Positions 26,010 through 28,271 of a stretch of DNA of 64,000 bases are shown one piece after another. The notes under the pieces were generated by a model. It did no database searches. It was not told the origin of the DNA and was given only the letters and a program-made list of their open reading frames with translations. The translations under genes and the position numbers were made by a program. Location: NCBI RefSeq assembly GCF_056746865.1, contig NZ_CM163382.1. One strand, written 5' to 3'. The stretch's first letter is position 1. Each line of letters starts with the position of its first letter.

Positions 26010-26837
26010 ATGGCTAATCCAACCGTTATTAAGCTACAGGATGGCAATGTCATGCCCCAGCTGGGACTGGGCGTCTGGCAAGCAAGTAATGAGGAAGTAA
26101 TCACCGCCATTCAAAAAGCGTTAGAAGTGGGTTATCGCTCGATTGATACCGCCGCGGCCTACAAGAACGAAGAAGGTGTCGGCAAAGCCCTGAAAAATGC
26201 CTCAGTCAACAGAGAAGAACTGTTCATCACCACTAAGCTGTGGAACGACGACCACAAGCGCCCCCGCGAAGCCCTGCTCGACAGCCTGAAAAAACTCCAG
26301 CTTGATTATATCGACCTCTACTTAATGCACTGGCCCGTTCCCGCTATCGACCATTATGTCGAAGCATGGAAAGGCATGATCGAATTGCAAAAAGAGGGAT
26401 TAATCAAAAGCATCGGCGTGTGCAACTTCCAGATCCATCACCTGCAACGCCTGATTGATGAAACTGGCGTGACGCCTGTGATAAACCAGATCGAACTTCA
26501 TCCGCTGATGCAACAACGCCAGCTACACGCCTGGAACGCGACACACAAAATCCAGACCGAATCCTGGAGCCCATTAGCGCAAGGAGGGAAAGGCGTTTTC
26601 GATCAGAAAGTCATTCGCGATCTGGCAGATAAATACGGCAAAACCCCGGCGCAGATTGTTATCCGCTGGCATCTGGATAGCGGCCTGGTGGTGATCCCGA
26701 AATCGGTCACACCTTCACGTATTGCCGAAAACTTTGATGTCTGGGATTTCCGTCTCGACAAAGACGAACTCGGCGAAATTGCAAAACTCGATCAGGGCAA
26801 GCGTCTCGGTCCCGATCCTGACCAGTTCGGCGGCTAA
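26010..26837 (+). CDS. dkgA: 2,5-diketo-D-gluconate / methylglyoxal reductase (AKR family)
   Basis: 275 aa. Confidence 0.95.
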   Translation: MANPTVIKLQDGNVMPQLGLGVWQASNEEVITAIQKALEVGYRSIDTAAAYKNEEGVGKALKNASVNREELFITTKLWNDDHKRPREALLDSLKKLQLDYIDLYLMHWPVPAIDHYVEAWKGMIELQKEGLIKSIGVCNFQIHHLQRLIDETGVTPVINQIELHPLMQQRQLHAWNATHKIQTESWSPLAQGGKGVFDQKVIRDLADKYGKTPAQIVIRWHLDSGLVVIPKSVTPSRIAENFDVWDFRLDKDELGEIAKLDQGKRLGPDPDQFGG

Positions 26838-26962
26838 CATGCAAATTCTCCCGGTGGCGGTAATGTTCCGCTACCGGACTTTTCAGAAATCATTTATTCC
26901 CCTCGCGTCCCGCCCGTTGTTACTCTTCCTTGTTCAGGAATGCCAAATATAAGGACATCATC

Positions 26963-27040
26963 ATGCAGAGCCGGAAGCTCTTAAAAGAACAACTCATCTA
27001 TATCCGGGATAAACGCAACGGAGAGGTGAAAAACAGATGA
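26963..27040 (+). CDS. Candidate 25-aa upstream ORF (MQSRKLLKEQLIYIRDKRNGEVKNR) whose TGA overlaps the yqhG ATG (ATGA)
   Basis: ATG preceded by aagga 7 nt upstream; stop overlaps downstream start; hypothetical. Confidence 0.3.
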   Translation: MQSRKLLKEQLIYIRDKRNGEVKNR

Positions 27041-27963
27041 AAATAATACTTCTGTTTTTAGCAGCCCTGGCAAGTTTTACCGTACACGCACAGCCCCCCT
27101 CACAGACCGTAGAACAAACAGTCCGGCATATTTATCAGAACTATAAATCAGATGCCACTGCCTCTTATTTTGGTGAAACCGGAGAGCGGGCGATAACTTC
27201 TGCGCGTATTCAACAGGCGCTTACCCTGAACGACAATCTTACGCTGCCGGGCAATATTGGCTGGCTGGATTATGATCCGGTTTGTGATTGTCAGGATTTT
27301 GGCGATCTGGTGCTAGAAAGCGTCGCGATAACCCAAACTGACGCCGATCATGCCGATGCCGTTGTGCGCTTTCGTATCTTTAAAGATGATAAAGAAAAGA
27401 CCACGCAGACACTGAAAATGGTGGCGGAAAATGGTCGTTGGGTCATTGACGATATTGTCAGCAATCATGGCAGCGTCTTACAAGCAGTTAATAGCGAGAA
27501 TGAAAAAACGCTGGCCGCTTTAGCTTCGTTGCAAAAAGAACAGCCGGAAGCCTTTGTTGCCGAACTCTTTGAACATATTGCTGATTATAGCTGGCCGTGG
27601 ACGTGGGTGGTTTCCGACTCTTACCGCCAGGCGGTTAATGCCTTCTATAAAACCACCTTCAAGACGGCCAATAATCCCGATGAAGATATGCAAATAGAAC
27701 GGCAATTTATTTACGACAATCCGATCTGTTTTGGCGAAGAGTCGCTATTTTCACGCGTTGATGAAATTCGAGTCCTGGAGAAAACCGCCGATTCCGCCCG
27801 CATTCATGTTCGTTTTACGCTGACCAATGGCAACAACGAAGAGCAAGAACTGGTTTTACAGCGGCGCGAAGGCAAGTGGGAAATCGCTGATTTTATCCGC
27901 CCGAACAGCGGCAGCCTACTTAAGCAGATTGAGGCAAAAACTGCCGCCAGATTAAAGCAATGA
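27037..27963 (+). CDS. yqhG: Secreted protein of unknown function (signal peptide)
   Basis: 308 aa with N-terminal signal sequence. Confidence 0.85.
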   Translation: MKIILLFLAALASFTVHAQPPSQTVEQTVRHIYQNYKSDATASYFGETGERAITSARIQQALTLNDNLTLPGNIGWLDYDPVCDCQDFGDLVLESVAITQTDADHADAVVRFRIFKDDKEKTTQTLKMVAENGRWVIDDIVSNHGSVLQAVNSENEKTLAALASLQKEQPEAFVAELFEHIADYSWPWTWVVSDSYRQAVNAFYKTTFKTANNPDEDMQIERQFIYDNPICFGEESLFSRVDEIRVLEKTADSARIHVRFTLTNGNNEEQELVLQRREGKWEIADFIRPNSGSLLKQIEAKTAARLKQ

Positions 27964-28013: not shown

Positions 28014-28271
28014 ATGAAAACGATTTTCACCGTGGGAGCTGTTGTTCTGGCAACCTGCTTGCTCAGTGGCTGCGTCAATGAGCAAAAGGTCAATCAGCTG
28101 GCGAGCAATGTGCAAACATTAAATGCCAAAATCGCCCGGCTTGAGCAGGATATGAAAGCACTACGCCCACAAATCTATGCTGCCAAATCCGAAGCTAACA
28201 GAGCCAATACGCGTCTTGATGCTCAGGACTATTTTGATTGCCTGCGCTGCTTGCGTATGTACGCAGAATGA
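28014..28271 (+). CDS. yqhH: Small outer-membrane lipoprotein, Lpp-like coiled coil
   Basis: 85 aa; lipobox LSGC. Confidence 0.85.

Follow-up and report, generated by a model that had tools for sequence, protein, structure and literature searches.

A 25-codon reading frame overlapping the start of Escherichia coli yqhG is probably the relic of a lost upstream gene

What is the short open reading frame that ends on the start codon of yqhG in Escherichia coli: a leader peptide, a small protein, or something inherited from an older gene order? The frame, called here the stub, lies in the 199-nt spacer between dkgA and yqhG, within a window (the whole stretch of 64,000 nt of DNA that was analysed) covering the E. 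coli yqhD-dkgA-yqhG-yqhH-ygiQ region, and the corresponding NC_000913.3 coordinate is the window position + 3,130,613. The sequence-only reading of this DNA had described a frame of 25 codons with AAGGA 7 nt 5' of its ATG and a TGA overlapping the yqhG ATG, and all these elements are found as described, the stub TGA sharing its TG with the yqhG ATG (27037-27039) to form ATGA at 27037-27040, so that the stub and yqhG have the upstream stop overlapping the downstream start, as coupled pairs do. When the 199-nt spacer was shuffled 5,000 times with its dinucleotide composition preserved, 9.4% of the shuffled spacers had an ATG-initiated frame of 20 or more codons that stopped on the yqhG-overlapping TGA, and 1.1% had such a frame together with an SD-like tetramer. 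The combination of frame, Shine-Dalgarno sequence (SD) and overlap is, therefore, mildly to moderately unusual against chance, and ancestry is a better explanation for it than a dedicated function. It is considered quite probable that the stub is the relic of a lost gene, named here X, with the start signals and the yqhG junction kept, and that its peptide is functionless; some ribosomes may be handed from it to yqhG. The features of the region and of X in the relatives are collected in Table 1.

Table 1. Features of the stub region in the window, and gene X in related genomes (positions of the locus named)
Feature	Locus	Position	Strand	Remarks
dkgA	window	26010-26837		annotated, like yqhG, in 5,423 E. 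coli genomes and in MG1655
Terminator-like hairpin of dkgA	window	26851..26877	+	CCGGTGGCGG-TAATGTT-CCGCTACCGG, then ACTTTT; kept in E. albertii-type loci (alignment A2)
Conserved upstream block	window	26880..26905	+	TTTTCAGAAATCATTTATTCCCCTCG; presumed regulatory region of the X/yqhG promoter
Extended -10-like element	window	26918..26926	+	TGTTACTCT (TGnTAnnnT); 7/8 loci, several genera
Stub SD	window	26951..26955	+	AAGGA, 7 nt to the ATG; the ancestral SD of X
Stub ORF	window	26963..27040	+	MQSRKLLKEQLIYIRDKRNGEVKNR, then stop; 25 sense codons; ATG 26963-26965, TGA 27038-27040
X-start-derived 5' segment	window	26963..26977	+	codons 1-5; possibly to 26983 if a 6-nt gap is allowed
Middle segment	window	26978..27012	+	source not traced to any X gene compared
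X-end-derived 3' segment	window	27013..27040	+	...EVKNR and stop; includes the yqhG SD and the ATGA overlap
yqhG SD	window	27020-27026	+	GGAGAGG; inside the X-derived 3' segment of the stub
yqhG	window	27037..27963	+	DUF3828, YbjP/YqhG family; predicted periplasmic protein
yqhH	window	28014..28271	+	Lpp-like lipoprotein; downstream operon member
X, E. albertii (named NCBI genome)	L021	2501-3397		yqhC-yqhD-dkgA-X(298 aa)-yqhG-...-ygiQ; junction TAATG
X, E. albertii-like contig	L008	1141-2043		dkgA-X-yqhG; junction ATGA
X, E. albertii-like contigs	L009, L023			dkgA-X-yqhG; junction ATGA
X, E. albertii-like contig	L007			dkgA-X-yqhG
X, more distant taxon	L026	2314-3213		dkgA-X-yqhG; junction ATGA
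X, same as in L026	L027			X-yqhG; junction ATGA
X, Superficieibacter	L025	1584-2504		X-yqhG; junction ATGA
X, Salmonella	L006	1538-2446		different genomic context; X precedes a yqhG homologue, with a 54-nt gap between them

Gene X, which E. albertii and several further enterobacteria have between dkgA and yqhG, is a signal-peptide gene of about 300 amino acids, and the pair X-yqhG is taken for the ancestral arrangement because it is found in several genera. The relatives were reached by protein search and contig look-ups; a single-protein contig scan gave four loci only, because YqhG diverges fast. The X protein is without a Pfam, NCBIfam or PDB sequence match, and its N-terminal third (about 130 residues) is weakly similar to YqhG/DUF3828 (tblastn E 1e-3 to 5e-8). 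Both ends of the stub are homologous to this gene. At the 5' side, window 26700-26974, spanning the dkgA 3' end, the spacer and X codons 1-4, aligns unbroken to L008 882-1152 (85.8% identity) and to E. albertii L021 2242-2512 (85.5%), with the ATGs coinciding in both; AAGGA, the distance to the ATG and the ATG itself are invariant columns in the E. coli clade, the E. albertii-type X, the locus L019 and the Salmonella X (alignment A2). The stub N-termini MQSRK (E. coli) and MQSWE (E69) correspond to MQRWQ of X, the E. coli codons ATG CAG AGC CGG AAG standing against ATG CAG CGC TGG CAA of the E. albertii gene, and the ancestral fourth codon TGG is kept in the E69 and E4742 lineages. At the 3' side, 19/24 of the last nucleotides before the yqhG ATG are identical to L008 X, and window 27011-27099, spanning the X 3' end and the yqhG 5' end, aligns to L008 2014-2102, L023 1206-1294 and L021 3371-3459 (also in alignment A3), the X proteins ending in ...RQDEVKNR or ...RQNEVKNR and the E. 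coli stub in ...KRNGEVKNR.

The best two-segment alignment has a single large gap of about 825-828 nt, placed after 26973-26976, and the net difference between the stub and L008 X is 825 nt (275 codons); since this is a multiple of three, both ends of X are read as one 25-codon frame. An intact homologue is thus present at the syntenic position (L021, L007, L008, L023 and L026), and the residual homology is confined to the 5' and 3' ends of the stub and absent from its middle 35 nt. The classic leader-peptide or coupling arrangement that had been proposed for the locus stands in part: the ATGA is a genuine coupling junction, the same as in the intact X-yqhG, but it belongs to the remnant left by a net 825-nt in-frame loss of X and not to a purpose-built leader. 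Variation of X itself was also encountered. In the E. albertii-type contig L007 (1606-2466), X measures only 286 aa because an A run near its 3' end has lost 1 nt (A8 to A7), and the overlap of X with yqhG is gone, which may be early decay or an assembly error. An X paralogue of 305 aa, with about 72.5% DNA identity to L008 X, occurs in 129/5,426 complete E. coli genomes; in E. coli O158:H23 CFIAFB20140388 (L010:4001-5457) it stands between yqhH and ygiQ beside a hypothetical gene of 115 aa, and it is also found at L002:4281-5159, while K-12 and the window have neither the paralogue nor the 115-aa gene.

The event itself was not demonstrably a single clean deletion, because the middle segment of about 35 nt is unalignable to any X gene. 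Its identity to the corresponding part of X is about 27%, which is the chance level, and the chance level was likewise obtained in local alignments with eight X genes (both strands) and the X paralogue, and with the upstream region of the second yqhG locus of E. albertii (L004). The segment is 31% divergent between E. coli and E69, against 7-9% in the upstream spacer. The event may have consisted of two deletions, of one deletion accompanied by filler DNA, or of recombination involving paralogous X-yqhG cassettes. The E. coli YqhG (27037-27963) is 78% identical to the E. albertii second-locus paralogue (L004:1195-2130), which lies downstream of a Na/sulfate-symporter-family gene, but shares only 70.5% identity with the E. 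albertii copy at the syntenic position (L021:3397-4332), beside which dkgA has 90.7% DNA identity to E. coli; this pattern suggests cassette replacement or gene conversion in the region, with a hint of recombination between paralogous cassettes. A small perfect hairpin, AGAGC-CGGAA-GCTCT (26967-26981), starts 2 nt after the stub ATG, where the deletion junction is presumed to lie; 8/8 E. coli-clade sequences have identical stems, the loop and the following codons vary, and the hairpin could represent a palindrome of the junction, a 5' element of the mRNA or a matter of chance.

The loss of X is old in E. coli and has recurred elsewhere. Every sampled member of E. coli and of the cryptic Escherichia clades has the deletion in common: 5,417/5,426 complete E. 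coli genomes contain 80% or more of the 121-nt region, and the 199-nt spacer is found without indels in Escherichia sp. MOD1-EC7003 (L002), in Escherichia sp. E4742 (L016) and in the E69-type lineage (L003, L017), whose dkgA is 91.7% identical to that of E. coli and, therefore, about as distant as that of E. albertii (90.7%). Since these groups share the spacer without indels, the loss predates the split of E. coli from the L002, L016 and E69-type clades. It had been asked whether the frame is conserved in related species, and the answer is divided: it is kept in E. coli and the cryptic clades, while elsewhere there is a gene of 300 codons, a different stub, or nothing. X was lost independently in at least two other lineages. 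In L019, a stub of 22 codons (MLRWYPHFFVLLLCLFSESAMQ, then stop) keeps the start and the signal-peptide codons of X, and its stop lies 8 nt before the yqhG ATG. In L024 (yqhC-yqhD-dkgA-yqhG-lpp-ygiQ), an in-frame X'-'yqhG fusion is composed of the dkgA 3' end, the spacer, about 27 X codons and yqhG from about codon 17, the L024 YqhG thereby bearing the X signal peptide (MKSLATW...). The promoter and start site of X are kept in 3/3 loss outcomes, consistent with yqhG as the former second gene of an operon, without a promoter of its own.

Two further records concern the same stretch. In E. coli EP91B (NZ_CP149810.1, L011:3040-3802), IS1X2 is inserted inside the stub at about window 26968 and the yqhG N-terminus is absent, which makes it a natural yqhG knock-out strain. 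A 3.3-kb contig labelled Flavobacterium paronense CECT 8460 (L005, NZ_JAUFQN010000016.1) is identical to the window over the 231 nt aligned (26830-27060) and encodes a YqhG 98% identical to that of E. coli; it is almost certainly E. coli contamination of the Flavobacterium assembly.

The encoded residues evolve as would be expected of a remnant. Within E. coli, synonymous variants are found at K8 and Y13 and nonsynonymous ones at L11F, L11P, I14T and R18C; the E69-type stub reads MQSWELFNQQSLYNMDKHDGEVKNR and shares 14/25 residues with that of E. coli, and many further replacements occur in the deeper lineages. The parsimony count over the stub is about 7 synonymous against about 20 nonsynonymous changes. 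For the most divergent pair, E. coli and the E69 type, pN/pS is 0.53-0.58, with 0.13-0.17 in yqhG as a reference; the comparisons of E. coli with L002 and L016 give 0.17-0.20 from only 5-9 partly shared changes. The peptide evolves near-neutrally, its constraint being relaxed, with the small numbers to be kept in mind; purifying selection on the residues is lost, as in gene remnants, and the residue conservation that characterizes small proteins is not found. The best-kept residues, EVKNR, coincide with the yqhG SD and its spacer.

That the stub encodes a functional small protein of 25 aa is, accordingly, regarded as very unlikely. Its good SD and ATG, its presence as an open frame in essentially all E. 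coli, and the low pN/pS in the two close comparisons speak for such a protein, but the residue changes are both frequent and radical, leucine 11 being polymorphic for proline within E. coli itself, nonsynonymous changes outnumber synonymous ones overall, the most conserved part overlaps the ribosome-binding site of yqhG, and outside the clade there is homology only to the two ends of X. The possible identity with a small protein from the ribosome-profiling studies did not hold up either. No feature is annotated between dkgA and yqhG in the RefSeq record of MG1655, which carries validated small proteins; the exact peptide of 25 aa and a TTG-start form of 36 aa are absent from a collection of 15 billion proteins; the peptide has no Pfam match, and its string is absent from the searchable literature full texts, where no experimental sign of stub synthesis was found, the ribosome-profiling supplements being only partly covered by that literature. 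Two named candidates were rejected by position, as yqhI, encoding 47 aa, is situated at 3147597 with yghX and gpr as its neighbours, while yqhJ runs antisense to yghE. YqhI and YqhJ are validated E. coli small proteins of the same size class and map neighbourhood as the stub, but they differ in locus and sequence and were detected by tagging, while the stub is known here from its sequence. In all, the stub peptide gives no sign of function.

A regulatory leader, with the stub sensing a metabolite, an antibiotic or a charged tRNA and controlling yqhG by attenuation or stalling, is still more improbable than a small protein. The position directly 5' of the supposedly regulated gene, with an overlap, resembles the known leaders. 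However, a terminator or antiterminator between the frame and yqhG is absent because the two overlap, no terminator-like site or Rfam family was matched in the region, and its RNA fold is not better than that of shuffled sequences (z = -1.1). The alignment yields no consensus structure with compensatory pairs or covariation. Neither a run of regulatory codons nor a conserved stalling peptide is present, the interior of the frame is free to vary, and descent from an ordinary gene pair explains the arrangement. Leader peptides of the trpL attenuator type, or toiL upstream of topAI (PMC12121999), are likewise short frames in the 5' region just before the main gene, but the stub is without their sensing codons, alternative RNA structures and conservation of peptide or structure, and its origin is different.

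Whether the stub is translated depends on where the yqhG transcript begins. The BglJ-RcsB-activated promoter of yqhG and yqhH, an operon called yqhGH there, has been mapped to the dkgA-yqhG spacer by 5' RACE (PMC3950696). The block at 26880..26905 is found beside X or yqhG in the E. albertii-type loci, Salmonella, L024, L025 and L026, even with a different upstream gene, and the conserved block TTTTCAGAAATCAT... precedes the TGnTAnnnT element, which occurs exactly once per spacer and 32-36 nt 5' of the X or stub ATG in 7/8 loci. From this element, transcription would start near 26932-26935, and the stub SD and ATG would then lie inside the mRNA. In Superficieibacter, the conserved promoter block recurs upstream of another gene (L025:5730-5805; 72% identity to window 26880-26958), which suggests that the block travels with duplicated X/yqhG-type cassettes. 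The scan of the region for canonical sigma-70 promoters and terminators gave no match, the hairpin after dkgA being missed by the terminator consensus because its T run is short.

This lack of a canonical sigma-70 promoter leaves some room, though little, for a silent relic, in which the yqhG mRNA starts at or after the stub ATG (e.g., from TATAAG at 26948-26953) or the start is occluded, and the stub is untranslated. TATAAG overlaps the SD, and the conserved 5-bp hairpin at 26967-26981 could hinder initiation, but it is AAGGA and not TATAAG that is invariant across genera, the same site must serve the translation of X in the relatives, and TGnTAnnnT is conserved upstream of the ATG. The stub is, therefore, probably translated at some level, because the ancestral SD and ATG, conserved across genera, are kept inside the predicted transcript.

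As a relic of X, the stub may also hand some ribosomes to yqhG. In the proposed course of events, the ancestor of Escherichia would have had the order dkgA, X, yqhG, with X encoding a secreted protein of about 300 aa and forming with yqhG one operon, translationally coupled through the X stop over the yqhG start. Nearly all of X (net 825 nt, 275 codons) would have been lost in the ancestor that E. coli shares with the cryptic clades, the survivors being the X promoter region, 5' UTR, SD, ATG, the first approximately 5 codons and the last approximately 8 codons with the overlapping stop. Transcription of yqhG would still proceed from the old X promoter; the ribosomes loading at the old X SD and ATG would translate the stub as far as the UGA within AUGA, and some of them would re-initiate on yqhG, besides the direct initiation at the yqhG SD GGAGAGG. 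Of this course, the synteny, the homology of the two ends, the deletion common to the clade and the relaxed constraint are observed, whereas the transcription start, translation of the stub and the passing of ribosomes to yqhG are predicted.

A stronger version of the hand-on, that the stub is a translation relay maintained by selection, in which the open frame ending at yqhG and not the peptide sequence is selected, is thought unlikely, if somewhat less so than a silent relic; on this reading, the expression of yqhG after the loss of X would still depend on ribosomes from the efficient initiation region of X, re-initiating at AUGA. All the E. coli and cryptic-clade sequences examined have the frame open, but as approximately 5-6% of random substitutions create a nonsense codon, about 27 neutral substitutions would leave it free of stops with a probability of 0.15-0.28, which is not significant, and the openness is, therefore, compatible with chance and no evidence of selection. 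The region of the SD, ATG and first codons (26951-26977) differs at 2/27 positions between E. coli and E69, against 11/35 in the middle of the frame, which would fit an initiation region still in use but equally a conserved 5' UTR or a promoter-proximal function. In 3/3 losses of X, ribosomes from the X ATG would end at, just before or inside yqhG; however, yqhG has its own strong SD, and its paralogue at the E. albertii second locus (L004) stands without a trace of the X start. The fold score and the lack of covariation give no support to a structure that would sequester the SD and make yqhG depend on upstream translation.

The preferred reading, a relic of X that may pass on some ribosomes, combines two known situations. 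Like the gene remnants formed by internal deletion, the stub has both ends homologous to an intact syntenic gene, most of the coding sequence gone and relaxed constraint, but its loss was in frame and the initiation region and stop were kept, resulting in a complete translatable frame joined to the next gene and too short for the annotation pipelines to flag, unlike the usual remnants. Like the many operon pairs coupled by overlapping stop and start codons (AUGA, UAAUG), of which mgtS-mgtT is one noted in PMC11429745, it has the junction geometry, here inherited from X-yqhG, but its upstream partner is of only 25 codons, without evident function, and yqhG possesses an SD of its own. Neither a functional peptide nor a sensing leader is likely. 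Newer RefSeq (PGAP) records name YqhG as 'YqhG/Tai3 family protein'; by Tai3 we understand a family of type VI secretion amidase-immunity proteins, and this would provide a functional lead for YqhG. The protein also has a marginal NCBIfam match to the Rv0361 C-terminal domain.

Gene relics and coupling by overlapping codons are well known, and the stub is a previously unannotated case of them; the main value of the locus is in the clean origin and in three independent, differently resolved losses of the same gene. A concrete and datable origin is given to an unannotated short frame in the best-studied bacterial genome. A good SD with an ATGA overlap, often proposed to mark a leader or a small protein, can be inherited from a deleted operon partner, and the case is a warning for ribosome-profiling catalogues that a relic may be translated without being a functional protein. 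The promoter and 5' UTR of yqhG in E. coli would be those of the lost gene X, which is relevant to the regulation of yqhG by BglJ-RcsB and to the role of yqhG in uropathogenic strains. If the frame were maintained as a relay, it would document the decay of a gene into an upstream ORF with a coupling function, and the recurrent losses of X would all have preserved the ribosome flow because yqhG expression needs such flow. The same gene lost three times with three outcomes is a natural experiment that could be used to test whether coupling constrains the deletion of operon genes.
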